Origin: an uncultured Thermoanaerobaculia bacterium
GTDB lineage: Bacteria; Acidobacteriota; Thermoanaerobaculia; Multivoradales; DATKCC01
Assembly (NCBI GenBank): GCA_964539125.1
Contig: CAZIIB010000002.1
Location: 1 to 36,271, forward strand
Direction: 5' to 3'
DNA length: 36,271 bases
The translations under genes and the position numbers were made by a program. Under the pieces are notes generated by a model, which did not search any database, had not been told where the DNA came from, and saw nothing but the letters and a program-made list of their open reading frames with translations. This document shows positions 2,228 to 32,875 of the stretch, piece after piece (the first letter of the stretch is position 1; each line of letters begins with the position of its first letter).

Positions 2228-8712
<6,485 letters not shown>

Positions 8713-8716
<4 letters not shown>

Positions 8717-11700: not shown

Positions 11701-13386
11701 GAGGAGCTGGCGACGCGCTCCCTCCGGCCCCGGGTGATCGTCCACCTCTGGAGCCTGCCCGCGGGGCCCGCCTGCCCCGACGGCTACCGGGCCTTCGCGG
11801 CGGCCCAGGAGCACGGCTTCTTCAGCCTCCTCGCCCTCGCCCAGGCGATGGGCGAGGGTGACGGCGAGGGCGAGACGGAGCCGACGCGGCTCTGGGTCGT
11901 CACCGGCGACCTCCAGGAGGTGGAGAGCGGCGACCGGTCGCGGCCCGAGCAGGCGACGATCTCCGGCCTCTGCAAGGTCATCCCGCAGGAGGTCCCGCAC
12001 CTCGTCTGCCACACCGTCGACGTGGCGGTTCCGGAGGCCGGGAGCGTCGAGATCGACCGCCTGGCGGAGCGCCTGGTCGCGGAGATCGGCGCCGAAGGGC
12101 CTGACCGGACGCTCGCCTACCGCGGCGAGGAGCGCTGGGTCCAGGCCTGGGAACCGACGCGAGCGAGCGAGCGAGCGGCGCTCCGGGAGCTGCGCCACAA
12201 GGGTGTCTACCTCCTCCTCGGCGGGTTGGGCCGGGTGGGGATGGCCATCGCCGGCCACCTGGCACGCACCGCGGCCGCCCGCCTGGTCCTGACGAGCCGC
12301 TCCGGGCTGCCCGAGCGGTCCGAGTGGGAACGCCTCCTCGGCCGTCCCGGCGAGCCGCACCCCCTGGCCCCCAAGATCCGGGCGCTCCAGGAGCTGGAGC
12401 GCGCCGGCGCGGAGGTCCTCGTGCTACGGGCGGACGTCGCCGACGAGCGCCGCATGCGGGCCGTGCTGGAGAGCGTCGACGAGACCTTCGGAGGGCTTCA
12501 CGGCGTGATCCACGCGGCGGGCTTCGCCGGCGAGAGCGCCCTGAGCTTCCTCCCGGAGACCGACCGCTCGGCCTGCGACCTTCACTTCCAGGCCAAGGCC
12601 AAGGGGCTCTACGTCCTGGACCGCGTGCTGGCGGACCGGGAGCTCGACTTCTTCCTGCTCTGCTCCTCCAACGCGTCGGTCCTGGGCGGGCTCGGGTCGG
12701 CGGCGTACGCGGCGGCCAGCTCCTTCATGGACGCCTTCGCCGTCAGCCACCGGAGGGAGGGGGGCGGGCCCTGGATCAGCGCCAACTGGGACGGCTGGCT
12801 GAGCGCGGACCAGGACCGGCTGAGCGCGACGTTCCGCACCAGCATCGACCGCTACGCCATGGACCCCGGCGAGAGCGTAGCGGCCTTCGAGCGAGTGGTC
12901 ACCCGATTCCCGGCGGGCCAGGTCGTGGTCTCCACCGGCGACCTGACGAGCCGGATCGACCTGTGGGTGCGGGGCGAGGGCCTGGGCTGGAGCGAGGAGC
13001 CCGGAGCGGAGGAGCGGCCGGCGGTCCTGCATCCGCGGGAAGGGATCGAGACCCCCTACGAGCCCCCCGGCGACGAGCTCGAAGCGCTCATCGCCAGGGT
13101 CTGGCAGGAGGCCCTCGGCATCGAGCAGCTCGGCATCCACGACAACTTCTTCGACCTGGGGGGCAACTCTCTCATCGGGCTGCGGGTGGTCTCCCGGCTC
13201 CGTCGGGAGCTGGGGCGAGAGATCCAGGTGGTCAGCCTGTTCGAGGGGCCCACGGTGAGCGCCCTGGCCAAGCTGTTGCGGGCGGCGCCGGGCGAGACGC
13301 CGGTCTTCGAGGAGAGCCAGGACCGCGGCGAGCAGCGCAGGATGCGGCGGGAAGGCAAGAGACGAGCGAGCGTGGCCGATGAATGA
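8713..13386 (+). CDS. Type I PKS module: KS-AT-KR-T
   Basis: The real start is ATG 8713, giving an ATGA overlap with the upstream TGA at 8714-8716, with GGGAGG 11 nt upstream. The listed ORF start at 4852 is only an open-frame extension. 1557 aa. KS: DVQTGCSTSLVAAH, EAHGTATALGDPVE, KSNLGHLDAAAG. AT: GHSLGEYVAA. KR: GVYLLLGGLGRVG..HGVIHAAG..SAAYAAAS. T domain: FFDLGGNSLIGLRV. Confidence 0.95.
8746..10032 (+). other. KS domain (Cys-His-His triad intact)
   Basis: aa ~12-440, with GCSTS, EAHGTAT and NLGHLD. Confidence 0.9.
10309..11277 (+). other. AT domain with divergent motifs
   Basis: aa ~533-855. FPGGGAQY replaces FPGQGAQY. The active-site GHSLGE is intact. The specificity-motif position reads VAAH (nt 10897-10908) rather than HAFH or YASH. 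Confidence 0.8.
11446..12972 (+). other. KR domain (structural plus catalytic subdomains)
   Basis: aa ~912-1420. WFYVPSW..VIVHLWSL structural part, Rossmann motif GGLGRVGMAIAGHLA, catalytic region CSSNASVLGGLGSAAYAAAS (the usual YAAAN Asn is Ser here). Confidence 0.8.
13060..13278 (+). other. Carrier (T) domain, PCP-like signature
   Basis: aa ~1450-1522: ELEALIARVWQEALGIEQLGIHDNFFDLGGNSLIGL. Confidence 0.85.
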
Positions 13387-16270
13387 GCCGTCGAGCGGGA
13401 CCGGGATCGCGATCATCGGAATGGCCGGGCGCTTTCCGGGGGCCCGGAGCGTGGACGAGCTGTGGCGCAACCTCGCGGCGGGGGAGGAGTCGATCCGGGC
13501 GCTCAGCGACGAGGAGCTGGCGGCCGGAGGGGTGGAGCCGGACCTCCTGGCCGATCCCCGCTTCGTCAAGGCCGCGGCGGTTCCCGACGGCGTGGACCTG
13601 TTCGACGCCGCGTTCTTCGGCATGACCGCGAGGGAGGCGGAGCTCGTCGATCCGCAGCACCGGGTTCTTCTCGAGACCGCCTGGCAGGCGCTGGAGGACG
13701 CGGGCTACGCGGCGGGCTCCTGCCCCGGCGCCGTCGGCGTCTATGCCGGGGCCACCATCAACACCTATCTGCTGTTCAACCTCCGGGGTAATCGCGAGGT
13801 CGTCAGGTCTCTCGACCTGCCGCAGCTCAACATCGCCAACGGCCGGGACTTCCTGGCCACCCGGGTGTCGTACAAGCTCGACCTCAAGGGCCCCAGCCAC
13901 CTGGTGCAGAGCGCGTGCTCGACCTCCCTCGTGGCGGTGCACGTGGCCGCGCAGAGCCTCTACGACGGGCAGTGCGACATGGCCCTGGCGGGCGGCGTCT
14001 CGGTCAACGTCAAGCTGATGCACGGCTACCGCCACGCCGAGGGTGGCCTGACCTCCCCCGACGGGCACTGCCGGCCCTTCGACGCCCTCGCGGCGGGGAC
14101 CGTCTTCGGCGGCGGCGCCGGAGTCGTGGTGCTCAAGCCGCTGGATCGGGCGCTGGCCGACGGCGACACGATCCGCGCCGTCCTCAGGGGGTCGGCGGTC
14201 AACAACGACGGAGCCGCCAAGGTGGGCTTCACGGCGCCGAGCGTCGAGGGCCAGGCGAAGGTGATCACCGAGGCGCTGGCCGATGCCGGTCTCGAGCCCG
14301 CGGCGATCAGCTACGTGGAGACCCACGGCACGGGCACCCCCCTGGGCGACCCCATCGAGGTCCAGGCCCTGAAACGGGCGTGGGGGGCGCGGGGAGCCGG
14401 CAGGCACACGTGCGCCCTCGGCTCGCTGAAAGCGAACATCGGGCATCTCGACGCCGCGGCCGGGGTCACCAGCCTGATCAAGACGGTTCTCGCCCTCGAG
14501 CACCGCCAGATCCCGCCGAGCCTCCACTTCGAGCAGCCGAACCCGGAGCTCGCCCTGGACGACAGCCCGTTCTTCGTCAACGCGCGCCTCACCGAATGGG
14601 AGCGGGGCCCGAGCCCGCGGCGGGCGGGGGTGAGCGCCTTCGGCGTCGGCGGCACGAACGCCCACGTCGTGGTCGAGGAAGCGCCGGAGCTCGAGGCGTC
14701 CGGGCCGTCGCGATCCTGCCAGCTCCTGGTCCTGTCGGCGTGCACCGCCACCGCGCTCGCGGCGCAGGAGGCCGGCCTGGCCGACCACCTGAAACGCCTG
14801 CCGGCCGCGAGTCTCGCCGACGTCGCCTACACGCTGGCCGTCGGACGCCGGCCGTTCGAGCACCGGCGGGCTCTGGTCGCGGGTAGCGCGCGGGAGGCGG
14901 TCACGATGCTCGAAGGCGGCGAGCCGGAGCGCAAGCCCGGCGGCCGGGCCGGGGACGCCGAGACCCCGGTCGTCTTCCTGTTCCCCGGCGCGAGCGCCCG
15001 GCACGCCGGCGCCGGCGGCGAGCTCTACGGCCACGAGGCGGTCTTCCGCAAGGGGCTGGACGCCTGCTCCGAGGTCGCCCGGCGTCGCCTCGGCCGGGAC
15101 CTGCCGGCGGTGCTCTTCGCCGCCGGCGGAGCGGCCTCTTCGCCGGTGGGCGAGGTGGAGGCCGACTCGCTGGAGCGAGCGGCGAGCTTCGCCCTGGAGC
15201 ACGCCCTCGCCGGGCTCTGGATGTCCTGGGGGGTCCGGCCCGCGGCGGTGATCGGCTACGGCACCGGTGAGCTGGTGGCGGCCTGCCTGGCCGGCGTCCT
15301 GACCCTCGACGACGCCCTGGCGCTGGCAGCGGCCCCGGTCACGGATTCCGCCGGCCGCCCGGAGGACCCCCGGGTCGGCCCGGCTCGGATTCCCTGGATC
15401 TCGAGCGTCACCGGTGCCCGGGTCACCGAGCCGCTCGCCGGCGAGCCCGGGTACTGGACCGCCCGGGAGCGGGACGGGTCGCGGCTCGACGACGGGATCG
15501 CGGAGCTCCTGGGTACGGCCGACCGGATCTTCCTGGAGGTCGGCTGGGGAGACGCCCTGGCGAGTCGCGTCGCGGCCCACGAGGCGTTCCGGCCCGGGCG
15601 CGTCGTGCTCTCGTCGCTGGCGGGGAGAGTGGACACCCGCACGGAGCCGGCGGCTCTCTTGGGGACGCTGGGCCGGCTCTGGCTCGCCGGGGTGCCGGTG
15701 GACTGGCATGGGCTCTACGCGGGCGAGCGCCGCCGCCGCATTCCTCTTCCCACCTACCCGTTCGAGCGCAAGCGCTACTGGATCGAGCCGACGCCGGAGG
15801 CCCATCGAGAGGCGGACGTGCCGGCCGCCGCAGGCCACGCCGAAGACGGCGGGGGGGCCCGGTCCGACGAAGAGGCGCCCCTCGCGCCGGCTCGCCATCC
15901 GCGACCCGACCTCATGGTGCCGTACGCGCCCCCCTCGACACCTCTCGAACGGCGTCTCGCCGAGGTCTGGCAGAGCGCCCTCGGGCTCGAGGTGGTGGGC
16001 ATCGACGACGGCTTCTTCGAGCTGGGCGGGGACAGCCTGGTGGCGGTCCAGGTGATGGACCAGCTCTCGGCGGAGCTCGGGAGAGCGATCCCCGCGGTCA
16101 GCCTGTACGAGGAGCTCACCGTCCGTGCCCTGGCGGAGCTCCTGACCGCCGAGGAGGACGCGCCGGCCCCGGAGCCCGGCGGAGCGGGAGAGAGGGAAGG
16201 CTGGACCCAGCGGCGGAAGGAGTTCCAGGAACGAGCGCGGCTGCGCAGAACGGAGAAGAGTCGGTCATGA
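13379..16270 (+). CDS. Type I PKS module: KS-AT0(degenerate)-T
   Basis: 963 aa. ATG 13379 overlaps the upstream stop at 13384-13386 by 8 nt. KS: QSACSTSLVAVH, ETHGTGTPLGDPIE, KANIGHLDAAAG. The AT-like region has GYGTG in place of GHSxG and is shortened. T domain: FFELGGDSLVAVQV. There is no KR, DH or ER. Confidence 0.95.
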   Translation: MNEPSSGTGIAIIGMAGRFPGARSVDELWRNLAAGEESIRALSDEELAAGGVEPDLLADPRFVKAAAVPDGVDLFDAAFFGMTAREAELVDPQHRVLLETAWQALEDAGYAAGSCPGAVGVYAGATINTYLLFNLRGNREVVRSLDLPQLNIANGRDFLATRVSYKLDLKGPSHLVQSACSTSLVAVHVAAQSLYDGQCDMALAGGVSVNVKLMHGYRHAEGGLTSPDGHCRPFDALAAGTVFGGGAGVVVLKPLDRALADGDTIRAVLRGSAVNNDGAAKVGFTAPSVEGQAKVITEALADAGLEPAAISYVETHGTGTPLGDPIEVQALKRAWGARGAGRHTCALGSLKANIGHLDAAAGVTSLIKTVLALEHRQIPPSLHFEQPNPELALDDSPFFVNARLTEWERGPSPRRAGVSAFGVGGTNAHVVVEEAPELEASGPSRSCQLLVLSACTATALAAQEAGLADHLKRLPAASLADVAYTLAVGRRPFEHRRALVAGSAREAVTMLEGGEPERKPGGRAGDAETPVVFLFPGASARHAGAGGELYGHEAVFRKGLDACSEVARRRLGRDLPAVLFAAGGAASSPVGEVEADSLERAASFALEHALAGLWMSWGVRPAAVIGYGTGELVAACLAGVLTLDDALALAAAPVTDSAGRPEDPRVGPARIPWISSVTGARVTEPLAGEPGYWTARERDGSRLDDGIAELLGTADRIFLEVGWGDALASRVAAHEAFRPGRVVLSSLAGRVDTRTEPAALLGTLGRLWLAGVPVDWHGLYAGERRRRIPLPTYPFERKRYWIEPTPEAHREADVPAAAGHAEDGGGARSDEEAPLAPARHPRPDLMVPYAPPSTPLERRLAEVWQSALGLEVVGIDDGFFELGGDSLVAVQVMDQLSAELGRAIPAVSLYEELTVRALAELLTAEEDAPAPEPGGAGEREGWTQRRKEFQERARLRRTEKSRS
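13400..14686 (+). other. KS domain (Cys-His-His triad intact)
   Basis: aa ~8-436, with ACSTS, THGTGT and NIGHLD. Confidence 0.9.
14963..15703 (+). other. Degenerate acyltransferase remnant (AT0)
   Basis: aa ~529-775. FPGASARH replaces FPGQGAQY. The nucleophile elbow reads G-Y-G-T-G (nt 15254-15268), so the catalytic Ser position is Gly. About 85 aa are missing between the elbow and the IPWISSVTG segment compared with the three sister modules, which removes the HAFH-bearing small subdomain. Confidence 0.8.
15932..16144 (+). other. Carrier (T) domain
   Basis: aa ~852-922: PLERRLAEVWQSALGLEVVGIDDGFFELGGDSLVAVQV. Confidence 0.85.
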
Positions 16271-19200
16271 CCCGCGAGCGGAACGGATCGGAGGTCGCGA
16301 TCATCGGCATGTCCTGCCGGTTTCCGGGGGCGCCGGGCGTCGACGCCTTCTGGGAGAACCTCCGCGGAGGGGTCGAGTCCATCACCTTCCTGCGCGACGA
16401 CGAGATCGAGGTCTCGAACCTCGAGCCCTCCGCCGTGGGCAGCCCGAGCTACGTCAAGGCGGCCTCGGTCCTCGAAGGGGTGGAGCTGTTCGACGCCGGC
16501 TTCTTCGGCGTCACTCCGAAGGAAGCCCTGGTGATGGATCCGCAGCACCGCCTGTTCCTCGAGTGCGCCTGGGAGGCGCTGGAGCACGCGGGCCACGAGC
16601 CCGACGCCTTCCCGGGCCCCGTCGGGGTCTTCGCCGGCGCACGCACCGACACCTACCTCCTGAACCTGTTCGCCGACCGCAGGCGCTTCGAGAGCCTGGG
16701 CGCCTTCCAGGTGGGTCTCGGCAACGACCTCGGCTTCCTCAGCACGCGGGTCTCCCACAAGCTCGACCTCAAGGGGCCGAGCTGCTCGGTCCACACCGCC
16801 TGCTCGACCGCTCTGGTGGCGGTCCACCTGGCGAGCCAGAGCCTGCTGACCGGCGAGTGCGACCTGGCTCTGGCCGGAGGCGTTGCGGTGAACGTGCCGC
16901 AGCGCACCGGCTACCTCTATCAGCCGGGGGGCATCGCCTCCCCCGACGGGCACTGCCGCACGTTCGACGCCAAGGCGGCGGGAACCATCTTCGGCAGCGG
17001 CGTAGGCGTCGTGGTGCTCCGGCGGCTGGTGGACGCCGAGGAGGACGGCGACCTCATCCACGCCGTGATCAAGGGCTCGTTCGTCAACAACGACGGCTCC
17101 TCCAAGGCCAGCTTCACGGCGCCGAGCGTTCGCGGGCAGGCCGAGGCCATCTCCGAGGCCCTCGCCGCCGGCGAGGTGGATCCGGCATCGGTCTCCTACG
17201 TGGAGGCCCACGGCACGGCGACGGAGCTCGGCGACGCCATCGAGATCCGCGCGCTGCGCAGAGCCTTCGGCCTCGACGGCCGAGAGGGCTACCGCTGCGC
17301 CATCGGCTCGGTCAAGACCAATTTCGGCCACCTCGACGCCGCGGCGGGCATCGCCGGGCTGATCAAGACCGCCCTGATGCTCGAGCACCGGGAGCTCGTT
17401 CCGAGCCTGCACTTCGTCACTCCCAACCCGCGGATCGAGTTCGACGGCGGCCCCTTCTACGTCAACACCGAGAACGCCGAGTGGCGCAACGGCGAGGGCC
17501 CGCGGCGGGCGGGAGTGAGCTCCTTCGGCGTCGGGGGCACCAACGTCCACGTGGTTCTCGAGGAAGCCCCGGAGCGGCCGCCGTCGGAGGGCTCGCGCCC
17601 GTGCGCGCTCCTGACGCTGTCGGCGAGGAGCAGCGAGGCCCTCGACAGGGCGACCGCCGACCTCCACGCCTTTCTGGAGGCGAATCCGGGGGCACTTCTC
17701 GCCGACGTCGCGTACACGTTGGCGGTAGGCCGCAAGGGCTTCACCCACCGGCGGACCCTGGCCTCCAGGGACCTGGCGGCGGCGGCCGAGGCCCTGGAGG
17801 CCTCCGATCGCCGGCGGGTCTTCACCGACCAGTGGGAAGGTGGCGAGCCCTCCGTCTGCTTCCTGTTCCCGGGACAGGGCGCCCAGTACGTGGGCATGGC
17901 CGGCGAGCTGTACCGGCACGAGGAGAGCTTCCGGGAGGACCTGGAGCTGTGCTGCGAGATCCTCCGGCCGCATCTCGACCTCGACCTGCGGGCGGTCCTC
18001 TACCCGGACCCGTCGGACGCCGAGGCGGCCGGCGAGCGGCTGGCCCGGACCGCCGTCGCCCAGGCAGCCCTGTTCGTCGTGGAGTACGCGCTGGCGCGGC
18101 TCTGGATGCGCTGGGGCGTTCGGCCGAGCGCCTTTCTCGGCCACAGCGTCGGCGAGTTCGTGGCGGCCTGCCTGGCCGGCGTCTTCTCCCTGGAGGAGGG
18201 GCTCACCCTGGTGGCGGAGCGCGGCCGCATGATGGACCGGCTGCCGGAGGGCGCCATGCTGGCGGTACCCCTGGGCGAGGCGGACCTCGCGCCGTTGCTC
18301 GTACCGGATCTCGAACTGGCGGCGGTCAACGGCCCGACGATGTGCGTGGCTTCGGGCACGGTCGAGGCCGTGGCGCGGCTGGAGGAGGCGCTGGCGAGCC
18401 GGCGCCTGCCCAGCCGCCGACTGGCGACCTCCCACGCCTTCCACTCGGCGCTGGTGGAGCCGGTGGTCGAGACGTTCACGGCGCGGGTGGCGGAGATCGG
18501 CCTCCAGGCGCCGGAGATGCGCTACGTCTCCAGTGTCACCGGTACCTGGGCCACCGCCGGCCAGGCCACCGACCCGGCGTACTGGGGGCGCCAGCTCCGG
18601 CACACGGTGCGCTTCTCCCAGGGCGTCGGGACGCTCCTCCAGGACGGCGTCCAGGTTCTGTTGGAGGTGGGGCCCGGCCGGGCCCTCGGACAGCTCGCGA
18701 AGCGGGACCCGGCGCTCGCCTCTGGGCACACCATTCTGGCCTCCCTCGGCGACGAGCGGGACGCGGGCCGGGAGACCGAGCCGCTGCTGCGGGCGCTGGG
18801 CCGCCTCTGGAACGTGGGGGTGGCGGTCGACTGGCACGCCTTCTACGCCGGGGAGCGGCGCCAGCGGCTGCCCTTGCCGACCTACCCCTTCGAGCGTCGG
18901 CGCTTCTGGGTCGAGGCGCGCGAGCCCGATCCGTCCGAGGTCGGGGCCGCCACGGGCAAGCGGAGAAACCTCGCGGAGTGGTTCCACCTCCCGTCGTGGC
19001 GGCGGACGATGGCGCCCCGTGCGCCCGGCGCCGAAGAGCTCTCCGAGGAGCCGCGTTGCTGGTGGCTGCTCCTGGACGACGAGGGCGTCGGCGAGGCCCT
19101 GGCCGCCCGCCTCCGCGAAGGGGGGCAGGAGGTGGTCGCCGTCTCCATGGGGGAGGGTTTCGAGCCGCTCGGCGAGGGCGCCTTCCGGGTGTCCCCCGAC

Positions 19201-21753
19201 CGGAGCGAGGATCTCGAGCTGCTGGTGGAGTCCCTGCGCCCGGCGCAGCAGTCCCCGGCGGTGGTCGTCCATCTCTGGAGCCTCACCCCCGCCGGCGAGG
19301 CGCGGGAGGGCGAGGCGCGCCTCGACGAAGAGCTCCGCCGGGGCCTCCATAGCCTCTTTCCCCTGGCTCGTGCCCTGCGGCGCCTGCCGCCGGGCGCGGC
19401 AACCGACCTCTGGGTGGTTTCGGACGGCTTGCAGGCGGTGGAGAGCCGGGACCGGACCATCCCCGAGAAGGCGACCCTCCTGGGCGCGGCGAAGGTGATG
19501 CCCCAGGAGATCGAGAGCCTGACCTGCAGGGTTCTCGACACGGACGCGGGCGCGGCGGACGGCGCAGGGGCCGGCCGCCTGGCGGAGCGGATCCTCGCCG
19601 AGGTCTGGGGAGCGAGCCCCGACGCGGAGATCGCCCTCCGCGGACCGCAGCGATGGGTGCGTGCCTTCGAGCCGGCGCGCCTGGAAGGGGACGCCCCGCC
19701 GCGCAGAGCGCTGCGCACGGGCGGTGTCTACCTGATCACCGGCGGTCTCGGCGGCGTTGGGATCCGTCTCGCAAGGTACCTGGCGGAGACGTTCCAGGCG
19801 AAGCTGGTCCTCACCGGCCGCTCGGAGCTTCCCCCGGCGGAGCGCTGGGACGCCTGGTTGGAGGCCCACGACCCGGACGACGAGCTCGCCGTGAAGATCC
19901 GGCGGGTCCGGGAGCTCGAGGAGGCGGGCGCGGAGATCCTGGTGCTGGCCGCCGACGCGGCGGACGAGGACCAGATGCGGGCCGTGCTGCGCGAGGCGGA
20001 GGCCCGCTTCGGGCGGCTCGATGGCGTGCTGCACGCCGCGGGGACCACGGGCGGCGATTCCCTCTACCGGCCCATGGCCGAGATGGGGCGCGAGGAGGCC
20101 GGCGAGCAGTTCCGCTCCAAGGTCCACGGCGTGTACGTGCTCGAGCGCATCCTGGAGGGCCGGGCGCCCGACTTCTGCCTCCTGTTCTCGTCGATGGCCG
20201 CGGTCCTGGGCGGCATCGGGTACGCCGCCTACAGCGCCGCCAACGGCTTCATGGACGCCTTCGCCCTCGGCCGGCGGGACCGGGAGGGCCCGGCGTGGCT
20301 CAGCGCCGACTGGGATCCCTGGCCCGAGGAGACCAAGAAGCTCGCCGGGGTCCGGACCAGCGTCGATCGCTACGCCATGAGCGAGGACGAGGCCGCCGAG
20401 GCGTTTCGGCGGGTGGTGTGTCTCGCCGAGCCGGGCCAGGTCGTGGTGGCGACGGGCGACCTGCCGACGCGTTGGGACCTGTGGATCCGCCGCCAGTTCG
20501 CAGCGGAGGAGGAGGGCGACCTCGCGGCGGGCGAGGATCGCTCCAGCCAGGCGCGGCCGGAGATGAAGACCGCCTTCGTCGCGCCGCGCGACGAGCTCGA
20601 GCGGAGCATCGCGGTCATCTGGCAGGGCGTGCTCGGGATCCGCGAGGTCGGTGTCGAGGACAACTTCTTCGACCTCGGAGGGCACTCGCTGCTCATGATC
20701 ACGGTTCAGGGCAAGCTGCGGGAGCTCATCCAGGTCGACCTGCCCATGGTCGACCTGTTCAAGTACCCGACGATCGCCGCCCTGGCGGAGGCGCTGCGGC
20801 GGGACCGGGGCGACGTCCTCCTGTTCCAGCAGATCGACGACCGGGCGCGGCGCCAGGCCGAGGCGATCAACCGCCAGCGGCCGGGGCGGACCGGGGGCAG
20901 CGCCGAGCCGGGGGCCAGCGCCCCGGAGGCCGCGGACGCCGAGGGCGGCCGGGAGGCGATCCTCGAGGCGCTGGGCGAGATCGTCGGTGGCGGACCGTCG
21001 GGCGACGGGTGGGGGCTCGGTGACGACCGTGAGGGACATCTCGCCGACGAGGACCTGGCGGCGTTCGCCGGCGAGCTGGTGAGCTCCTTGGAGCCCGTCG
21101 CGGAGAGCGTCCTCTACTACCCGCATCCCTTCAACCGGGGCGGGTTCGTCGTCGTCCTCCCGGACGAAGGGGTGGACCTCCTGGAGCGCCTGGTGTCCGC
21201 CTACGCCGGGGCGCCCCCCGACGTCATGGTCACGGTCCTGCGCCGGTCCGAGCTGGCCGAGCTTTCGTACCCCGGCATGTTCGTCCCCACCGACGTCAAC
21301 CCGAGGGTCCACCTGGCGCTCTGGCTCAAGCACAAGGGGAGCGTTTTGTTCGGCGCCGACCTCCGGGAGGAGATCCCCGAGCCCGAAACGGATCCCGGCC
21401 TGCTCCTGGAGGCTCACCTGGCCGGCTGCGCCCTCTCCCTGCGCTCCGCCGTCCTCGAACGGCTGTTGGAAGGCAAGTACCTGGCCCTGGTACGCGAGCT
21501 GGACCGCCAGGCGAGATACCTGATGGCGACGGCGCTGCGGGCGCGCGACGAGTGGGACGTCGACCTGGAGACCCTGCCGGAGCGCTTCGCTCGGGTGTTC
21601 GCCGACGCGGCGCTCCGCGACGCCTTCGCCGGCGTCGCCGCCGTCCGGGAGCGGATGGAGAGCTCGCCGGACGCCGAGTCCCGTGACCTCGCCCTCGAAG
21701 CGGTCTGGTCGGTGGATCGCTTCGTGCGGCGGTTGAGGAGCCAGGCCCGATGA
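16267..21753 (+). CDS. Type I PKS module with an extra C-terminal domain: KS-AT-KR-T-X (X = nucleotidyltransferase-fold-like)
   Basis: 1828 aa. ATG 16267 forms an ATGA overlap with the upstream stop. KS: HTACSTALVAVH, EAHGTATELGDAIE, KTNFGHLDAAAG. AT: GHSVGEFVAA and SHAFHS (malonyl-type). KR: GVYLITGGLGGVG..HAAG..GYAAYSAAN. T domain: FFDLGGHSLLMITV. A ~320-aa tail follows that is not a TE, R or C domain. Confidence 0.95.
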   Translation: MTRERNGSEVAIIGMSCRFPGAPGVDAFWENLRGGVESITFLRDDEIEVSNLEPSAVGSPSYVKAASVLEGVELFDAGFFGVTPKEALVMDPQHRLFLECAWEALEHAGHEPDAFPGPVGVFAGARTDTYLLNLFADRRRFESLGAFQVGLGNDLGFLSTRVSHKLDLKGPSCSVHTACSTALVAVHLASQSLLTGECDLALAGGVAVNVPQRTGYLYQPGGIASPDGHCRTFDAKAAGTIFGSGVGVVVLRRLVDAEEDGDLIHAVIKGSFVNNDGSSKASFTAPSVRGQAEAISEALAAGEVDPASVSYVEAHGTATELGDAIEIRALRRAFGLDGREGYRCAIGSVKTNFGHLDAAAGIAGLIKTALMLEHRELVPSLHFVTPNPRIEFDGGPFYVNTENAEWRNGEGPRRAGVSSFGVGGTNVHVVLEEAPERPPSEGSRPCALLTLSARSSEALDRATADLHAFLEANPGALLADVAYTLAVGRKGFTHRRTLASRDLAAAAEALEASDRRRVFTDQWEGGEPSVCFLFPGQGAQYVGMAGELYRHEESFREDLELCCEILRPHLDLDLRAVLYPDPSDAEAAGERLARTAVAQAALFVVEYALARLWMRWGVRPSAFLGHSVGEFVAACLAGVFSLEEGLTLVAERGRMMDRLPEGAMLAVPLGEADLAPLLVPDLELAAVNGPTMCVASGTVEAVARLEEALASRRLPSRRLATSHAFHSALVEPVVETFTARVAEIGLQAPEMRYVSSVTGTWATAGQATDPAYWGRQLRHTVRFSQGVGTLLQDGVQVLLEVGPGRALGQLAKRDPALASGHTILASLGDERDAGRETEPLLRALGRLWNVGVAVDWHAFYAGERRQRLPLPTYPFERRRFWVEAREPDPSEVGAATGKRRNLAEWFHLPSWRRTMAPRAPGAEELSEEPRCWWLLLDDEGVGEALAARLREGGQEVVAVSMGEGFEPLGEGAFRVSPDRSEDLELLVESLRPAQQSPAVVVHLWSLTPAGEAREGEARLDEELRRGLHSLFPLARALRRLPPGAATDLWVVSDGLQAVESRDRTIPEKATLLGAAKVMPQEIESLTCRVLDTDAGAADGAGAGRLAERILAEVWGASPDAEIALRGPQRWVRAFEPARLEGDAPPRRALRTGGVYLITGGLGGVGIRLARYLAETFQAKLVLTGRSELPPAERWDAWLEAHDPDDELAVKIRRVRELEEAGAEILVLAADAADEDQMRAVLREAEARFGRLDGVLHAAGTTGGDSLYRPMAEMGREEAGEQFRSKVHGVYVLERILEGRAPDFCLLFSSMAAVLGGIGYAAYSAANGFMDAFALGRRDREGPAWLSADWDPWPEETKKLAGVRTSVDRYAMSEDEAAEAFRRVVCLAEPGQVVVATGDLPTRWDLWIRRQFAAEEEGDLAAGEDRSSQARPEMKTAFVAPRDELERSIAVIWQGVLGIREVGVEDNFFDLGGHSLLMITVQGKLRELIQVDLPMVDLFKYPTIAALAEALRRDRGDVLLFQQIDDRARRQAEAINRQRPGRTGGSAEPGASAPEAADAEGGREAILEALGEIVGGGPSGDGWGLGDDREGHLADEDLAAFAGELVSSLEPVAESVLYYPHPFNRGGFVVVLPDEGVDLLERLVSAYAGAPPDVMVTVLRRSELAELSYPGMFVPTDVNPRVHLALWLKHKGSVLFGADLREEIPEPETDPGLLLEAHLAGCALSLRSAVLERLLEGKYLALVRELDRQARYLMATALRARDEWDVDLETLPERFARVFADAALRDAFAGVAAVRERMESSPDAESRDLALEAVWSVDRFVRRLRSQAR
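16288..17568 (+). other. KS domain
   Basis: aa ~8-434, triad intact. Confidence 0.9.
17851..18831 (+). other. AT domain, malonyl-CoA-type motifs
   Basis: aa ~529-855, with FPGQGAQY, GHSVGE and HAFH. Confidence 0.85.
18973..20481 (+). other. KR domain
   Basis: aa ~903-1405. WFHLPSW..VVVHLWSL structural part, then GGLGGVGIRLARYLA, then SSMAAVLGGIGYAAYSAAN. Confidence 0.85.
20572..20796 (+). other. Carrier (T) domain, PCP-like
   Basis: aa ~1436-1510: FVAPRDELERSIAVIWQGVLGIREVGVEDNFFDLGGHSLL. Confidence 0.85.
21034..21750 (+). other. C-terminal domain X: degenerate AadA/ANT-like nucleotidyltransferase-fold domain, paralogous to the next gene
   Basis: aa ~1590-1828. By-eye alignment with the downstream 300-aa protein: LRRSELAELSYPGMF..GSVLFGADLREEI against LSRDELSALHLSPFY..RTAFGEDLLSEI, and LLLEAHLAGCALSLRSAV against TYFFEARHAAHFHLARFL. 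The G-S...D-x-D catalytic motif is absent; the equivalent stretch reads LYYPHPFNRGGFVVVLPDE. Confidence 0.5.
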
Positions 21754-22652
21754 CGGTCACGATCGCGGACTACGACGTCGCCCTGGAGCGCTTCCTGGAA
21801 ACCCTGGGCCGGATCGGGGCCGGCCTCCAGAGCGTCGTCCTCCACGGCTCCATGGCGTGCGGCACGGTCAAGCCGGGCTGGAGCGACGTGATGGACGCCC
21901 ACGTGGTCCTGGGCGACGAGGTGTTCGAGGATCGGGAGACCTACCTCGCCGCCCTGGCGGTGATGCTGGACGCCTGCCAGGAGCTGGAGGCCTCCGGCCT
22001 CCCCTTCCACCCCTTCGGCTACCTGAGCCGGGACGAGCTCTCCGCCCTCCACCTCTCGCCGTTCTACACCTTCCCCTTCGAGCCGTACTCGCGGACGGCG
22101 TTCGGCGAGGACCTGCTCTCGGAGATCCGCCAGGGGCCGGCGAGCCGCGAGCTCGCCCGTACCTACTTCTTCGAGGCGCGTCATGCGGCCCACTTCCATC
22201 TCGCCAGGTTCCTGGGGAAGCCGGAGCTCACCGACGCCGAGCGCGCGCAGCTCATCACCGTCCTGCTCTCGATCAACAAGTCCCTGGTCATGGCCTGTGC
22301 GGCGCTGGGCGTCGACCTCGTCGACATCCGGAAGCTCGACATCGTGGCGCAGCTCGAGACTCTGGTCCCCGGGCTCGACGCCTCGGTCATCGGCCGGATC
22401 GAGGACCTGCGGGGCGCCCTGGAGGTGGCCCCGGAGACCGCGCGACCCGCCCGGAAGGCGCGGGGGAGCCTGAGCGAGGAGGGAGCGAGGCGCAGCGAAG
22501 AGGCCCGGGAGGTCGCCTGGCAGGCCCTGCGCTTCGTCGAGGCGCTCCACGACGAGATCGTCCGCCGCCGACGCGACGAGGCGACGGTCTGCTCCGAGGC
22601 CGTGCCCGCGGCTCCCACCCACGGCGGACAGATGCGCGAGGGGAAGGGCTGA
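21750..22652 (+). CDS. Nucleotidyltransferase-fold protein, AadA / ANT(3'')-like (atypical metal-binding motif)
   Basis: 300 aa. ATG 21750 forms an ATGA overlap with the PKS stop, with GAGGAG 9 nt upstream. The N terminus VVLHGSMACGTVKPGWSDVMDAHVVL (nt 21846-21896) resembles the aminoglycoside adenylyltransferase motif LYGSxxxGGLKPxSDIDLLV, but the two Asp are spaced D-x-x-D rather than D-x-D. The downstream helical half (FGEDLLSEI..ARHAAHFHLARFL) resembles the AadA C-terminal domain. GC3 codon bias supports this frame. Confidence 0.6.
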   Translation: MTVTIADYDVALERFLETLGRIGAGLQSVVLHGSMACGTVKPGWSDVMDAHVVLGDEVFEDRETYLAALAVMLDACQELEASGLPFHPFGYLSRDELSALHLSPFYTFPFEPYSRTAFGEDLLSEIRQGPASRELARTYFFEARHAAHFHLARFLGKPELTDAERAQLITVLLSINKSLVMACAALGVDLVDIRKLDIVAQLETLVPGLDASVIGRIEDLRGALEVAPETARPARKARGSLSEEGARRSEEAREVAWQALRFVEALHDEIVRRRRDEATVCSEAVPAAPTHGGQMREGKG

Positions 22653-22656
22653 GACG

Positions 22657-23955
22657 ATGCGCGCCTCGCCACAGGGCGGCGGCCGGGAGACGGGGGCCGG
22701 GAGGCGCTCACCGGAGCGGCCTCTTCACGTGATGGCCCTGTCCCTCGAGTACACGCCCAAGCTCAGCGGCGGCATGGGCACCCAGGTCTACGAGCTCTCG
22801 CGGGGCCTCGCCGGCGCCGGCCACCGGGTCTCCGTGCTGGCCTACACGTCGGGAGAGCCGCAGGAGCTGCGACGGCCCAACGAGACCGTGCACCTGATCT
22901 CTCCCTCCGTCGGCGCCGGCTCGACCCGCGCGCGCCCGTCCATGGCCGAGGGGATCCTGGAGTTCAACGAGGCGCTGATCGCTCGCGCCGCTCCCCTCAT
23001 CGACGAGGCGCGGCAGCGCCCCGACGTCCTCCACTTCCACAACTGGGCGACCTATCCCGCGGCGAAGGCCTTGGGAGAGCGCTTCGGCATCCCCGGCTTC
23101 GGCACCGTCCACTTCATCTCGGAGCCCATCGAGCGATGGTGGGGCCAGACCCCCGACCCCGAGATCGTGGAGCAGGAGCGTCGGATGTTCGCCGAGGCGA
23201 AGGCCCTGGTGGCGGTGAGCCACTCCCTGCGCTCGGTCGTGCGCTCGGCGTACGCCCTGAACGGCGCCTCCTTCGGCGTCGTGCACAACGGCCTGGATCC
23301 GACGCCGTTCGCCTCCCTCGCCGGTCGCGGGGCCGATCGGGAGCGGCTGCGCCGGGCGGTCGCGGCGGCCGACGAGAAGCTCGTCCTCTTCGCCGGGCGC
23401 CTCAACCTGCAGAAGGGTGTTCCGGCGCTCCTGGCGTCGGCGGCCCGGGTGCTCGAAGAGTACCCGAGGGCCCGCTACCTGATGGTGGGGGAGCCCGACT
23501 CCCGCGACTTCGGCGCCACCCTCGAGCGGACCCTGGACGAGCTTCCCGTCCTGCGGCGGCGCGTGACGTGGATGGGCAAGCTGCCGCGCCGGCAGCTCGC
23601 CGCCCTCTACCAGGTCGCCGACCTGGCAGTGGTCCCCTCGATCTACGAGCCGTTCGGGTACGCGGCGATCGAGGCGATGGCGGCGGCGGTGCCCCTCGTG
23701 GCGAGCCGCGTGGGCGGGCTGGCGGAGATCGTGGAGGACGGTGTCAGCGGGCTGCTGGTGCCCGTCGAGGAACCGCCCTCCGCGGCGCACACCGTGGACG
23801 TCGATGCCCTCGCCGCGGCGCAGCTCGAGCTGCTTCGCGACGCGGGACGGGCCCAGGAGGTGGGCCGGGCGGCACGGCGGCGGGCAATCCAGGACTTTTC
23901 TGTCGAGCGCATGGTCGCCTCGACGACGGAGGCCTATCTCGATGCAGTCGCATGA
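22657..23955 (+). CDS. GT-B glycosyltransferase, family GT4-like (Glycos_transf_1 type)
   Basis: 432 aa. N-terminal MALSLEYTPKLSGGMGTQVYELSRGLAGAGHRV. C-terminal nucleotide-sugar-binding region LLFAGRLNLQKGV..VVPSIYEPFGYAAIEAMAAAVPLVASRVGGLAEIVEDGVSGLLV (E-x7-E motif). ATG 22657 lies 4 nt after the upstream stop and has a GGGGAAGGG Shine-Dalgarno sequence. ATG 22732 (M26) is an alternative start that would remove a low-complexity 25-aa extension. Confidence 0.85.
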   Translation: MRASPQGGGRETGAGRRSPERPLHVMALSLEYTPKLSGGMGTQVYELSRGLAGAGHRVSVLAYTSGEPQELRRPNETVHLISPSVGAGSTRARPSMAEGILEFNEALIARAAPLIDEARQRPDVLHFHNWATYPAAKALGERFGIPGFGTVHFISEPIERWWGQTPDPEIVEQERRMFAEAKALVAVSHSLRSVVRSAYALNGASFGVVHNGLDPTPFASLAGRGADRERLRRAVAAADEKLVLFAGRLNLQKGVPALLASAARVLEEYPRARYLMVGEPDSRDFGATLERTLDELPVLRRRVTWMGKLPRRQLAALYQVADLAVVPSIYEPFGYAAIEAMAAAVPLVASRVGGLAEIVEDGVSGLLVPVEEPPSAAHTVDVDALAAAQLELLRDAGRAQEVGRAARRRAIQDFSVERMVASTTEAYLDAVA

Positions 23956-24028: not shown

Positions 24029-27000
24029 ATGAGCACGGGCAAGACCGAGAATCCCATCGAGAGCATCGCGATCGTCGGCATGAGCGGGAGGTTCCCCGGA
24101 GCGGCGGACGTCGACGAGTTTTGGCAGAACCTCCAGGCCGGCAAGGAGTCGATCGAGATGCTCTCGGACGACGAGCTGCGGAGCCAGGGCATCCCCGACT
24201 CGGTGCTCGCCAAGCCCAACTACGTCAAGGCGCGCTCCGCGGTCGACGGCATGGAGCTGTTCGACGCCTCCTTCTTCGGCTTCAACCCGAACGAAGCGAG
24301 GATTCTCGATCCCCAGCACCGCCTGTTCCTGGAGTGCGCCTGGGCGGCGCTGGAGAACGCGGGGTACGACGTCGAGACCTACCCCGGCACGGTCGGGGTG
24401 TTCGGCTGCGCCAGCTCCAGCAACTACTTCCTCTACAACCTCTTCCCGAACCGTGAGGTGAGGGACCTGGTGGGGGCCTTTCAGCTCGCCATCGGAAACG
24501 ACCGGGAGTTCCTGCCCACCCGGGTCTCCTACAAGCTGAACCTGAAGGGCCCGAGCGTCAACGTCCAGACCGCCTGCTCGAGCTCGCTGGTGGCGGTCCA
24601 TCTGGCTTGCCAGAGCCTGCTCAACTATCAGAGCGACATGTGCCTGGCCGGCGGGGTCTCCATCCGGAGCGCCGTCGGCGGCTACTACTTCACCGAGGGG
24701 GGCATCCTGTCGCCCGACGGTCACTGCCGAGCCTTCGACGCGCGGGCCCACGGGACCATCTTCGGCAGCGGTCTGGGAATCGTCGTCCTCAAGCGTCTGC
24801 GCGACGCCCTCGATGACGGGGACGAGATCTACGCGGTGATCCGGGGCTCCGCGGTGAACAACGACGGCTCGGACAAGGTGGGCTACACGGCTCCGGGAGT
24901 CGAGGGCCAGACCCGCGTCATCGCCGAGGCGCAGGCCATCGCCGGCGTCGACCCGGACACGATCGACTACGTGGAGGCCCACGGCACGGCCACGGCGCTG
25001 GGCGACCCGATCGAGGTGGCGGCCCTCACCCAGGTGTTCCACCGCGGCACGTCGCGGCGGAACTATTGCGGGATCGGCTCGGTCAAGAGCAACGTCGGGC
25101 ACCTCGACGCCGCGGCCGGCGTCACCGGCCTGATCAAGACGGCGCTCATGGTCAAGCACGGAAAGCAGGTGCCGAGCCTCCATTACCGGGAGCCGAACCC
25201 CCAGATCGACTTCGCGAGCAGCCCGTTCTTCGTCGGCACCGAGCTCCGCGACTGGCAGGTCGAGAAGAGACCACGGCGGGCCGGTGTGAGCTCCTTCGGG
25301 ATCGGCGGCACCAACGCCCACCTCATCCTGGAGAGCGTCGCCCCCCGGGAGGCCGCGACTCCGTCGGTCGCGCCGCATCTGCTCTTCCTCTCGGCGCGCA
25401 CCGCCAGCGCCCTCGAAACCGCCACGGCGAATCTCGCCCAGCACCTGAAGCTCCACCCGGAGGTCGATCTCGGCGACGTCGCCCACACCCTGCACGTCGG
25501 CCGCGCCGCTTTCGACCACCGCCGGATGCTGGTCTGCACCGACGTCGACGACGCCGTCACGGCTCTGGAGACGGCTAGCCCCCGGCGCCTGAGGACCGCC
25601 GTCCACGAGCCCGCGCCGCGCAACGTGGTCTTCATGTTCCCGGGCCAGGGCGCCCAGTACCCGGGGATGGGCGCCGGCCTGTACGACGGCGAGCCGGTCT
25701 TCCGCCGTCACCTGGACGCCTGCCTCGAGGTGCTGGAGGCGCGTGCCGAGCTCGACCTGCGCCCGGTTCTCTATCCCGCCGGCGAGCCGTCGGAAGAGGA
25801 GAAGGCCACGCTCTCCGAGACGGGGTTCGCCCAGCCGGCGCTCTTCGCGGTGGAGTACGCGCTGGCCAGGCTCTGGATGGAGTGGGGAGTCTCTCCGGAG
25901 GCGCTGATCGGCCACAGCATCGGGGAGTACGTGGCGGCCTGCCTGGCGGGAGTCTTCTCCCTCGAGGACGCTCTGGCGCTGGTGGCGCGGCGGGGGCGCC
26001 TGATGCAGGACCTCCCCGGCGGTTCCATGCTGTCGGTCCCGCTGAGCGCCGAGGAGCTGTCGGGGCGCCTGGGAGAGGACCTGGCCCTCGCGGCGGTCAA
26101 CGGACCCTCGGTCTGCGCCGTGTCCGGGACCCCGGAGGCGATCGCCGGCCTGGAGGCCCGGCTCGCCGAGGAGCAGGTGGCCTTCCGGCGTCTCCACACC
26201 TCCCACGCCTTCCATTCCGCCATGATGGATCCCATCCTCGACGAGTTCACCGAGGCGGTGGAGGCGGTCGAGCGCCGGCCGCCGCAGATCCGCTTCCTGT
26301 CCAACGTCAGCGGTACCTGGATCACCGACGCCGAGGCGACCGATCCGCGCTACTGGGCCCGGCACCTGCGGGAGACCGTGCGGTTCTCGGACGGCGTGCG
26401 GGAGCTCCTGAAGGACCCGTCGCGGGTCTACCTGGAGGTCGGTCCGGGGCGGGCCCTCTCCGCCCTGACCCGGCAGCACCGCGAGGGACCGGCGACGAAG
26501 CTGGTGCTCTCGTCCTTGCGGCCGGCGAACGAGCTGCGCCCGGACGCCGAGGTGCTCCTCGACGCCCGGGGTCAGCTCTGGCTGGCCGGCGTCGAGGAGG
26601 CCCCCGGAACGCTCCATGCCGGCGAGGGCACCCGCCGGGTGCCGTTGCCGAGCTATCCCTTCGAGCGGCGGCGCTACTGGATCGAGGCGGGCGCCGCCAC
26701 GGAGGCGAAGGACGAGGCGCCGGCGGGCAGGATCCAGGACCTCTCCGACTGGTTCTTCCTACCCTCCTGGAAGCGCTCCACGCCCCTGGCGGTCGCCGAC
26801 GGGTCGAGCCCGGAAGCCTCCTGGCTGGTCTTCTCCGACGACTGCGGCCTGGGAGACGCCCTGGACGGGAGGCTCCGGGAAGCCGGAGAGGAGGTCTTCT
26901 CCGTCCGCGCCGGCACCGGCTACGGCGAGGCGAAGGACGGCACCTTCACCGTCGCCCCGGGGAGTCGCGCCGACTACGTCGACCTGCTTCGCGGACTCGA

Positions 27001-29704: not shown

Positions 29705-29742
29705 TTCACCGAGACCCTGCCGACGGAAACGGGAGACGACCG

Positions 29743-30918: not shown

Positions 30919-31419
30919 ATGAGCGACCGCATCGAGAGCGTCTTCATCGGCACGGCCGGGCTCGCGTTGGCGGCGTTCGTCGCCCTCTACCTGGCGATCG
31001 CGCGGAGCGCGGCGGCCTCCGAGCCGGCGGCCCGCGATCGCCTCGTGCGACTGGTCGCCCTCGCCATCGCGGTAGAGGCCCTGCACTTCGTCGAAGAGCT
31101 GACGACCGGCTTCCAGCGCCAGTTTCCCCACTTCCTGGGGCTCACCGACTGGACGACCGGCTTCTTCGTCACCTTCAACGTCGCGTGGTTCCTCGTCTGG
31201 ATCGTGTCCGCGTTCGCTCTGCGGCCGAACTACGCCTGGGCCTATTTCCCGATCTGGTTCCTGGGGATCGGGATGCTGGTCAACGGCATCGTCCATCCGT
31301 TCCTGGCGCTGGCGAGCGGGCGGTACTTCCCGGGCCTCCTGACCTCCCCCTTCGCCGGGGTGCTGGGAGCGATCCTCCTGCGGCGGCTGTGGGTGCTGAC
31401 CCAGGCCCGGTGGTGGTAG
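30919..31419 (+). CDS. HXXEE-domain integral membrane protein (function unknown)
   Basis: 166 aa with about four hydrophobic spans. Signature H-F-V-E-E within EALHFVEELTTGF. GGAG lies 7 nt upstream of the ATG. Confidence 0.7.
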   Translation: MSDRIESVFIGTAGLALAAFVALYLAIARSAAASEPAARDRLVRLVALAIAVEALHFVEELTTGFQRQFPHFLGLTDWTTGFFVTFNVAWFLVWIVSAFALRPNYAWAYFPIWFLGIGMLVNGIVHPFLALASGRYFPGLLTSPFAGVLGAILLRRLWVLTQARWW

Positions 31420-32835: not shown

Positions 32836-32875
32836 CCCGGGCGGTCCGCGATCGGCGGAGATCGGGCGTGGCGTG

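Follow-up and report, generated by a model that had tools for sequence, protein, structure and literature searches.

The question raised by this locus is why one of its modular polyketide synthases (PKSs) carries a C-terminal domain of ~240 aa that neither Pfam nor NCBIfam matches, directly ahead of a small gene for what appears to be its nucleotidyltransferase paralogue. The window, meaning the whole stretch of 36,271 nucleotides analysed here (contig CAZIIB010000002.1, assembly GCA_964539125.1, from an uncultured Thermoanaerobaculia bacterium), contains one biosynthetic gene cluster, with all cluster genes listed here on the + strand. The C-terminal domain of its third PKS (PKS3) is called X in the following, and the protein encoded immediately downstream is called Y. 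The reading that best accounts for the evidence is that X and Y form an enzyme/pseudoenzyme heterodimer resembling aminoglycoside nucleotidyltransferases (ANTs), which would be tethered to an acyl carrier protein (ACP) domain and would work together with a GT4 glycosyltransferase on a β-hydroxy intermediate; its probability is put at roughly 0.55. The features on which the argument turns are the following, with the basis of each assignment where one applies.

16267-21753, + strand: PKS3, KS-AT-KR-ACP followed by a linker and X, 1828 aa (~320 extra residues); open reading frame (ORF) and Pfam
20608-20796, + strand: PKS3 ACP (PP-binding), aa 1448-1510; PF00550, E 4.9e-15, GGHSL serine motif at aa 1471
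20797-21033, + strand: post-ACP basic helix (LLFQQIDDRARRQAEAINRQR) and ~60-aa Gly/Ala/Glu/Pro-rich tether, aa 1511-1589; translation
21034-21750, + strand: X domain, degenerate ANT-like nucleotidyltransferase paralogue, aa 1590-1828, ~240 aa; profile comparison with the Y family
21750-21753, + strand: ATGA start/stop overlap, PKS3 (X) to Y
21750-22652, + strand: Y, 300-aa stand-alone nucleotidyltransferase, presumed catalytic subunit; ORF and family profile
21846-21896, + strand: Y active-site motif G33-S34...S45-D46-x-x-D49
22104-22112, + strand: Y G119-x-D121 motif, candidate third carboxylate; G119 98% and D121 94% conserved
22137-22598, + strand: Y C-terminal helical domain, about aa 130-283; secondary structure of models

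PKS3 is an ordinary module up to its carrier domain. The active-site motifs are in place in the KS (C-H-H), the AT (GHSxG/HAFH) and the ACP (GGHSL), the KR motifs are intact, and a DH is absent from both the Pfam annotation and the translation. As an earlier note on this DNA had described, the protein then ends in a domain of ~240 aa: the KS, AT, KR and PP-binding domains are all placed N-terminal of X, and aa 1590-1828 match no model in Pfam or NCBIfam. The same note had expected a TE, R or C domain at this position, which does not hold, since PKS3 is an internal module with PKS4 (24029-29704) and a trans-acting enoylreductase (ER) coming after it; for this reason X was also rejected as a release domain. 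X was likewise rejected as a PKS docking domain, as it is globular and about 240 aa long, in contrast to the short (about 20-40 aa) helical elements found at PKS termini, and is preceded by a basic helix of its own. Such short basic helices, rich in Arg and Gln, follow the ACP in PKS1, PKS2 and PKS3 alike (13290-13386, 16170-16270 and 20797-20870). Because PKS1 and PKS2 end in similar basic tails, X looks as if it had been appended after the normal C-terminal element.

Y carries the residues expected of an active enzyme. The signature proposed in the earlier note, LHGSMACGTVKPGWSDVMDAHVV, is present at aa 31-53, with the two aspartates spaced as D46-x-x-D49 instead of D-x-D, and the coupling of PKS3 and Y by an ATGA overlap was found at 21750-21753. 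H32-G33-S34 corresponds to the hG[GS] motif at the β1-α2 turn of Pol-β-superfamily nucleotidyltransferases, a motif which X does not have. Among 87 Y-family members, G33 is conserved in 98%, S34 in 100%, and S45, D46 and D49 in 98% each. The superfamily has two metal-binding carboxylates in [DE]-x-[DE] spacing on strand β2, and in HMMER alignments D46-x-x-D49 can be matched to the D-x-D of AF0614 and ANT(4')-IIb only with a one-residue gap. Two family members, P0009 and P0016, have the canonical S-D-I-D spacing, from which it can be argued that D46 and D49 are the usual metal ligands; their sequences suggest that the metal-binding strand tolerates one inserted residue. D121 comes after a predicted strand, and a G-x-D-x-R motif is kept after the fourth strand in both families, with G107, D109 and R111 in the domain numbering of X. 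As the motif-less X keeps GxD too, D121 may be structural or may act in trans. At position 123, 86% of the family have Arg (GxDxR) but window Y has L123, and the other PKS-linked members compared at this position, P0002, P0004 and P0005, are likewise without the Arg; position 37, which is Arg in 73% of the family (GSxARG), is Cys37 in window Y. Given that X keeps the GxDxR arginine, residues could be divided between the X and Y subunits. Only the closest PKS-linked relatives (window, P0002) carry an insertion of ~20 aa at about aa 226-245 of Y.

Placing Y in a family required deep searches. A word-indexed search returned a single relative each for Y (P0002, 57% identical) and X (the fragment P0003, 67% identical), and phmmer searches of X and of Y against the Protein Data Bank (PDB) sequences gave no meaningful matches. 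An exhaustive HMMER search of 1.84 billion cluster representatives with a Y profile recovered 95 proteins, 86 of them at E <= 1e-10; the family is rare and mostly stand-alone, with proteins of 250-270 aa. NTP_transf_2 (PF01909) matches 71 of the 87 members at E <= 0.1 (best 2e-8) and Polbeta (PF18765) matches 47, while no Pfam family is matched by the C-terminal domain of any of the 87, and NCBIfam has no model for Y. When the family profile is compared with PDB sequences, the minimal nucleotidyltransferase (NTase) AF0614 (2.6e-4) and ANT(4')-IIb (6e-3) come first, followed by AadA, LinB and CdnD at E of about 0.1, with the AadA chains (E 0.07-0.12) matched only over a motif region of ~40 residues. 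The earlier description of Y as AadA/ANT-like thus stands in part: sequence and models support a Pol-β-type nucleotidyltransferase with an ANT-like two-domain build, but the sequence of Y does not place it in the AadA family. More generally, the Y family has the ANT build but belongs to no ANT family by sequence. A defence or toxin-antitoxin (MNT-HEPN) system was considered and rejected, as both PADLOC and the biosynthetic genomic context speak against it; PADLOC returned nothing for window X or Y, and weak NTase-core matches for relatives only. Protein AMPylation of the ACP or of the glycosyltransferase seems only remotely conceivable.

The relationship between X and Y, previously proposed from an alignment by eye, is undetectable in pairwise comparison (BLASTP E 0.65) but becomes significant with deeper profiles. 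With profiles of two and three sequences, hhalign gave a probability of 0.3%; with 87 Y and 8 X sequences, the probability rose to 93.9% (E 1.5e-7, 147 columns). Local hhalign runs covered 208-248 collinear columns, nearly the whole of X and Y, at E 5e-7 to 9e-6 and about 17% identity, and controls in which Y was reversed or column-shuffled gave E values of at least 0.28. A hidden Markov model (HMM) of Y directly matches six independent X sequences, with E values from 1e-6 to 2e-4 and an unvarying register, and MAFFT stacks window X onto the Y block unprompted when many Y rows are present. Most of the signal lies in the C-terminal ~150 residues; for the N-terminal core, homology is supported by the local hhalign runs together with the agreement in the order of secondary-structure elements. 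At the positions aligned to the Y motif, X lacks both the G-S and the Asp pair, as the earlier note had said, and in the aligned N-terminal part the ~9-residue loop bearing S45-D46 is deleted and D49 is replaced. The profile comparisons therefore support X as a remote paralogue of Y that has lost the G-S and Asp motif.

X and Y are consistently found together. Upstream sequence is available for 12 independent unfused loci, and in each of them X is encoded directly 5' of Y; they comprise five contig look-ups (L001, L004, L006, L008 and L010) and seven Acidobacteriota genome loci, with the window as the thirteenth case. In all five loci with called genes, which are the same five contigs, the X and Y genes share a 4-nt stop/start overlap. 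The window, L001, L004, L006 and L014/L023 have X attached to a PKS ACP, and the remaining eight unfused loci encode it as a free-standing ORF of 240-340 aa. A third arrangement is a single chain: five cluster representatives of ~540 aa are X-Y fusions with Y as the C-terminal half, and an HMM of three X sequences matches their N-terminal halves at 3e-12 to 7e-4. A scan of 185,579 species genomes with a degenerate DNA motif found nine loci, of which seven encode a true Y, each with an X ORF directly 5'; these seven are in metagenome-assembled Acidobacteriota (three Pyrinomonadaceae, Bryobacteraceae, Thermoanaerobaculia, Blastocatellia and one "Acidobacteria bacterium"). The other two matches, in Streptomyces katrae and an alphaproteobacterial genome, were discarded as not belonging to the Y family. 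A search for related loci with the X alignment found no genome. The suggestion that X and Y act as a pair with one partner tethered by a carrier domain is strongly backed by the adjacency, the 4-nt overlaps and the X-Y fusions. Strict adjacency, conserved translational coupling, natural fusion and the high model confidence of the fusion together argue for an obligate heteromer.

That confidence comes from structure prediction. An AlphaFold model of window Y built from two sequences reached a mean predicted local distance difference test score (pLDDT) of 56.6 and was uninformative in a fold search. For P0066, a natural X-Y fusion, the AlphaFold2 model built from 85 sequences, with the window X rows excluded from the alignment, reached pLDDT 91.0 and a predicted template modelling score (pTM) of 0.92. 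Both halves of P0066 show the same β/α core followed by a five- or six-helix bundle, the order of elements being alpha-beta-(alpha)-beta-alpha-beta...beta in the Y half and beta-beta-alpha-beta...beta in the X half. The three best Foldseek matches are ANT(3'')(9) (7uy4, E 4.4e-3, probability 1.00, TM 0.50), AAD(9) (6xz0, E 7.6e-3, probability 1.00) and kanamycin nucleotidyltransferase (KNTase; 1kan, E 1.1e-2, probability 0.89), with the fourth far weaker (E 0.16); against 7uy4_A and 6xz0, 268-284 columns are aligned at a target-normalised TM of 0.50-0.51. The structure search that had been proposed for an ANT-like fold thus places an AadA-type enzyme and KNTase among the top three for the homologue model. 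Sequence profiles and structure agree on an ANT-type build, with the fold seen in the model of a homologue. Two further groups appear among the non-significant Foldseek matches of both models, namely the AziU2-AziU3 complex (8gs1, 7wuw) of azinomycin aziridine formation and the HEPN toxins of MNT-HEPN systems.

To see what such a pair might do, its surroundings must be considered. Nearly all X/Y loci examined adjoin NRPS (nonribosomal peptide synthetase), PKS or other biosynthetic genes, and the PKS-fused form lies in a conserved cassette, KS-AT(-like)-ACP / KS-AT-KR-ACP-X / Y / GT4 / KS-AT-KR-DH-ACP / ER, of which the remaining members in the window are as follows.

13379-16270, + strand: PKS2, KS-(degenerate AT)-ACP, 963 aa; Pfam
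22657-23955, + strand: GT4 glycosyltransferase, 4 nt 3' of Y; Pfam Glycos_transf_1 and Glyco_transf_4
24029-29704, + strand: PKS4, KS-AT-KR-DH-ACP, the next module; Pfam
29701-30897, + strand: trans-acting enoylreductase-like protein (ER); ADH_zinc_N

The full cassette occurs in the window, with 72% G+C, in L006, a metagenome contig of 56 kb with 56% G+C, and in L023, from a Pyrinomonadaceae genome (contig DASVQF010000043.1) with 61% G+C; partial cassettes are found in L001 and L004. A rifamycin-phosphotransferase-like gene comes after the cassette in L006 and a free C domain in L023. GT4 lies directly 3' of Y in the window, L001, L006 and L014/L023, and in L006 and L023 a PKS4-type gene and then an ER gene follow it. 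In two cases a glycosyltransferase is part of the same chain as Y: P0004 (709 aa, L004) is a fusion of Y to GT4, and P0072 (738 aa, L010) is a fusion of Y to Capsule_synth (PF05159). The best PDB relatives of GT4 are GlgM (6tvp, E 4e-36), MshA and an archaeal GlgA. Glycosyltransferases are the most frequent partners of X/Y and the only fused ones, yet they are not universal, so that a coupling to glycosylation may hold only for some clades.

The loci outside the PKS-fused group are more varied. The X / Y-Capsule_synth pair of L010 lies beside an ABC exporter. In L012 an X-Y fusion is encoded beside MacB, two GT4 genes and an FAAL-NRPS, in L005 an X-Y fusion occurs with MbtH, FAAL and a carbamoyltransferase, and L020 and L022 share the order OTCase-like / X / Y / MacB. 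Where X/Y is not fused to a PKS, its genes are found directly beside MacB/FtsX or ABC exporters (L020 773-2390, L022 3780-5260, L012 7418-11614, L010 7389-12217). In two clusters X/Y comes directly after an ornithine/aspartate-carbamoyltransferase-like gene, and a NodU/CmcH-type carbamoyltransferase is present in L005 and L020. In L018, X, Y and an unknown gene are followed by a GT4 joined to the C domain of an NRPS. There, on the - strand of the Thermoanaerobaculia metagenome-assembled genome contig DASQPA010000130.1 (L018 1-2526), the GT4 (aa ~150-485) and the condensation domain (aa 573-839, running off the locus) share one frame two genes 3' of X/Y; if real, this would be a glycosyltransferase built into an NRPS.

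The model favoured here is as follows. X and Y would form an obligate 1:1 heterodimer, similar to the homodimer of KNTase except that only one active site is live; Y would supply the site for nucleoside triphosphate (NTP) and Mg, and X would supply the second subunit as in dimeric ANTs. In KNTase, ANT(4')-IIb and LinB, which are dimers, both subunits contribute to each active site. X would in addition be, in the PKS clade, the covalent tether beside the ACP. Since X hangs on a flexible tether of ~60 aa after the ACP, the heterodimer would be within reach of the phosphopantetheine-bound β-hydroxyacyl chain, and the chain of fusions from ACP-X through X-Y to Y-glycosyltransferase suggests that the glycosyltransferase is recruited to this position as well. 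Y and GT4 are encoded between PKS3 and PKS4, which by collinearity fits an action on the product of module 3, and this product is expected to be a β-hydroxyacyl thioester because the KR motifs are intact and a DH is missing. GT4 would glycosylate the new β-hydroxyl, after which Y would move a nucleoside monophosphate from NTP onto a sugar hydroxyl in the manner of ANTs, or else onto the aglycone, and both steps would precede transfer of the chain to PKS4. As ANT enzymes nucleotidylylate sugar hydroxyls, the simplest chemistry would be that GT4 glycosylates the β-hydroxyl and Y then O-nucleotidylylates the sugar. That a polyketide is indeed O-glycosylated and O-nucleotidylylated on its carrier by the ACP-anchored X/Y pair and the glycosyltransferase before the next condensation, and so becomes nucleotide-tagged or nucleotide-activated, is a tentative proposal and on balance a doubtful one. 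If true, such a polyketide would travel down a modular PKS or be rerouted on it. To our knowledge, such carrier-bound O-nucleotidylylation is undescribed for any PKS or NRPS.

Several observations weigh against this reading. The Foldseek matches to ANTs are modest, none reaching E <= 1e-3, with a target-normalised TM of 0.50-0.51 (0.30 for KNTase), and the high-confidence model is that of P0066, a homologue only 25-26% identical to the window proteins. Window Y itself scores 15.4 bits against PF01909, where the gathering cut-off is 21 (E 0.026), and is without R37 and R123, Arg residues of most family members. The best structural matches, AadA and AAD(9), are monomers, so that the KNTase-like X/Y dimer is drawn by analogy. 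The Y-GT4 fusion P0004 is known from one short contig and could be a frameshift artefact, and L020, L022 and L005 have carbamoyltransferases and MacB-type exporters and not a glycosyltransferase.

Other explanations start from the same features. Y could adenylylate the ACP-bound β-hydroxyl directly and so create, as proposed in the earlier note, a leaving group analogous to sulfonation by CurM/Ols, for elimination or substitution, with X only tethering Y. The KS-AT-KR-ACP architecture, in which an intact KR without a DH makes a β-hydroxyl available beside X, is consistent with this, as are the catalytic residues kept in Y and the tethering of X directly after the ACP. It does not account, however, for GT4, which is directly 3' in every PKS-type cassette, or for the glycosyltransferases fused to Y in two lineages; X/Y is found also in NRPS clusters without any KR-ACP module, and the nearest structural relatives act, as is partly general knowledge, on sugar hydroxyls. 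Nor is O-AMP elimination known to us from any PKS, and this explanation is unlikely. The catalytic residues might instead be beside the point, with X/Y serving purely as a structural, heterodimeric docking pair which recruits GT4 or another trans-acting enzyme to the ACP and for which nucleotidyl transfer is irrelevant. The ACP-X, X-Y and Y-glycosyltransferase fusions do join the partners physically, the pTM of 0.92 points to a fixed arrangement within the X-Y fusion, and R37 and R123 are lost in window Y. Against a purely structural function, G33, S34, D46, D49 and D121 are 94-100% conserved in a family whose members can be as little as 21-30% identical, a pattern which is read as purifying selection on the catalytic site of Y; window Y keeps all five residues, and X/Y occurs in clusters without a nearby glycosyltransferase. 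Such a role is accordingly judged improbable.

The exporters and the phosphotransferase point in a different direction, that of a self-resistance or pro-drug tag. X/Y would then nucleotidylylate the finished, released metabolite so that it stays inactive before export, as Mur29 does in muraymycin producers, and the rifamycin-phosphotransferase-like enzyme would be a complementary partner that phosphorylates it. The ANT-like fold would fit, exporters lie directly beside X/Y in L012, L020, L022 and L010 while the window has a gene of the major facilitator superfamily (MFS), the phosphotransferase-like gene belongs to the cassette of the window and L006, and there is a published precedent for a kinase and a nucleotidyltransferase that act on one hydroxyl (PMC12710036). 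That X is covalently joined to an internal ACP, and that Y and GT4 lie between two PKS genes in five loci, speaks instead for action on the assembly line, and none of the known resistance ANTs has anything like an obligate pseudo-subunit, which makes a resistance function rather improbable. Finally, Y might act on the donor side and either make the NDP-sugar used by the neighbouring glycosyltransferase or, like the NTase-fold enzymes LicD/FKRP, move a phospho-sugar or phospho-alcohol from an NDP or CDP donor; the latter would yield a phosphodiester-linked glycolipid. Fusion of Y to two unrelated glycosyltransferase families (GT4 and Capsule_synth) fits donor channelling, GlgM and MshA, the closest solved relatives of GT4, use phosphorylated acceptors, and a phosphotransferase is part of the cassette. 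Yet LicD/FKRP went unmatched in the PDB, Pfam and Foldseek searches made for Y, a donor-making enzyme on an ACP has no obvious rationale, and we know of no Pol-β-fold sugar-1-phosphate nucleotidylyltransferase; a donor-side function is thus very improbable. This leaves the ACP-tethered heterodimer acting together with GT4 as the preferred reading.

Compared with known systems, nothing is unusual about the fold or the probable class of reaction; what is unfamiliar is the asymmetric pair of paralogues, the fusion to a PKS carrier and the coupling to a glycosyltransferase. ANT(3'')(9)/AadA and ANT(9)/AAD(9) (7uy4, 6xz0, 5lpa) share the N-terminal Pol-β NTase core with G-S...Asp and the C-terminal helical domain. 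They differ in the lack of significant sequence similarity (E 0.07-0.12), in having D-x-D where most Y members have D-x-x-D, and in being encoded by resistance genes outside PKS/NRPS clusters; they are single chains that act on aminoglycosides and are not known to have a pseudo-subunit. KNTase ANT(4')-Ia, ANT(4')-IIb and LinB (1kan, 4ebj, 3jyy) have the same two-domain fold, and 4ebj and 3jyy are among the matches of the Y profile; with their two-subunit active sites they may be the natural template for the X/Y pair. They are homodimers with two live sites, in contrast to X/Y, where one partner is diverged, motif-less and fused to a PKS carrier or to Y. The CurM/Ols sulfotransferase-thioesterase is comparable in that a group-transfer enzyme placed by an ACP acts on a tethered β-hydroxyl, but its fold and cofactor are different (a sulfotransferase using 3'-phosphoadenosine-5'-phosphosulfate) and it belongs to a terminal module with a TE, whereas PKS3 is internal and has neither sulfotransferase nor TE. 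Precedent for carrier-bound glycosylation exists in PtmJ of pactamycin biosynthesis, which glycosylates ACP-bound polyketide intermediates; it works with a discrete-type PKS, and no nucleotidyltransferase-like partner or tethering domain is known for it. In the muraymycin cluster, the nucleotidyltransferase Mur29 and the kinase Mur28 both modify one metabolite hydroxyl (PMC12710036). As in the window, a nucleotidyltransferase is encoded with a phosphotransferase in a biosynthetic cluster; unlike X/Y, Mur28 and Mur29 act on free intermediates or products in self-resistance, without a pseudo-subunit, a carrier fusion or a glycosyltransferase fusion.

The literature consulted, the coverage of which is incomplete so that this is absence of evidence, describes no carrier-protein/nucleotidyltransferase-like fusion and no ANT-like PKS pseudo-dimer. 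The myxoglucamide cluster looked similar and was set aside, as its paper mentions no nucleotidyltransferase. If the preferred reading is true, X is a new type of modular-PKS accessory domain, a pseudoenzyme serving as the covalent anchor of its active paralogue, and the pair brings the first nucleotidyl-transfer chemistry, coupled to glycosylation, to be wired into an assembly line. The two protein families lie outside Pfam and NCBIfam models and mark a conserved, uncharacterised gene-cluster family in the Acidobacteriota, a phylum that has hardly been explored for natural products. The X/Y pair can also be regarded as a natural experiment on how dimeric resistance nucleotidyltransferases evolve asymmetric heterodimers, and the tether and its partner could be reused to bring tailoring enzymes to engineered PKS modules.

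The remaining genes of the cluster lie on either side of the cassette.

1-2226, + strand: rifamycin-phosphotransferase/PEP-synthase-like enzyme, 5'-truncated by the window edge; PPDK_N and PEP-utilizers, frame open to base 1
2228-8716, + strand: NRPS, FAAL (fatty-acyl-AMP ligase)-ACP-C-A-PCP; Pfam
8713-13386, + strand: PKS1, KS-AT-KR-ACP; Pfam
30919-31419, + strand: HXXEE protein
31429-32835, + strand: MFS transporter
32777-33706, + strand: weak sulfotransferase-like ORF; Sulfotransfer_4, E 4.7e-7, overlapping the end of the MFS gene

The product of 1-2226 matches the NCBIfam model RIF_Ptrans_rph at E 6.5e-140, under the cut-off of the model, and resembles PigC/RedH ligases too. Its homologue in L006 (19640-20789) lies 3' of ER, in the same cluster family of a second organism, and a hydroxyl of the product may be phosphorylated by this enzyme. 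An ORF of 476 aa at 33767-35197 matches neither Pfam nor NCBIfam. No thioesterase or other release domain is visible within the window; in the Pyrinomonadaceae locus L023, a free condensation domain lies 3' of ER. All four KS domains begin at most 14 residues from the N-terminus, and a classical N-terminal docking domain is not evident. In the AT of PKS2, only the first 113 of 319 profile positions are matched and the GHSxG motif is absent, while the counterpart in L023 (836-4018, 1060 aa) has a complete AT. The A domain of the NRPS is split by a luciferase-like monooxygenase (PF00296, aa 1413-1725) placed between the AMP-binding core and AMP-binding_C, an interrupted arrangement which we take to be the architecture of MtaG/MelG-type modules.

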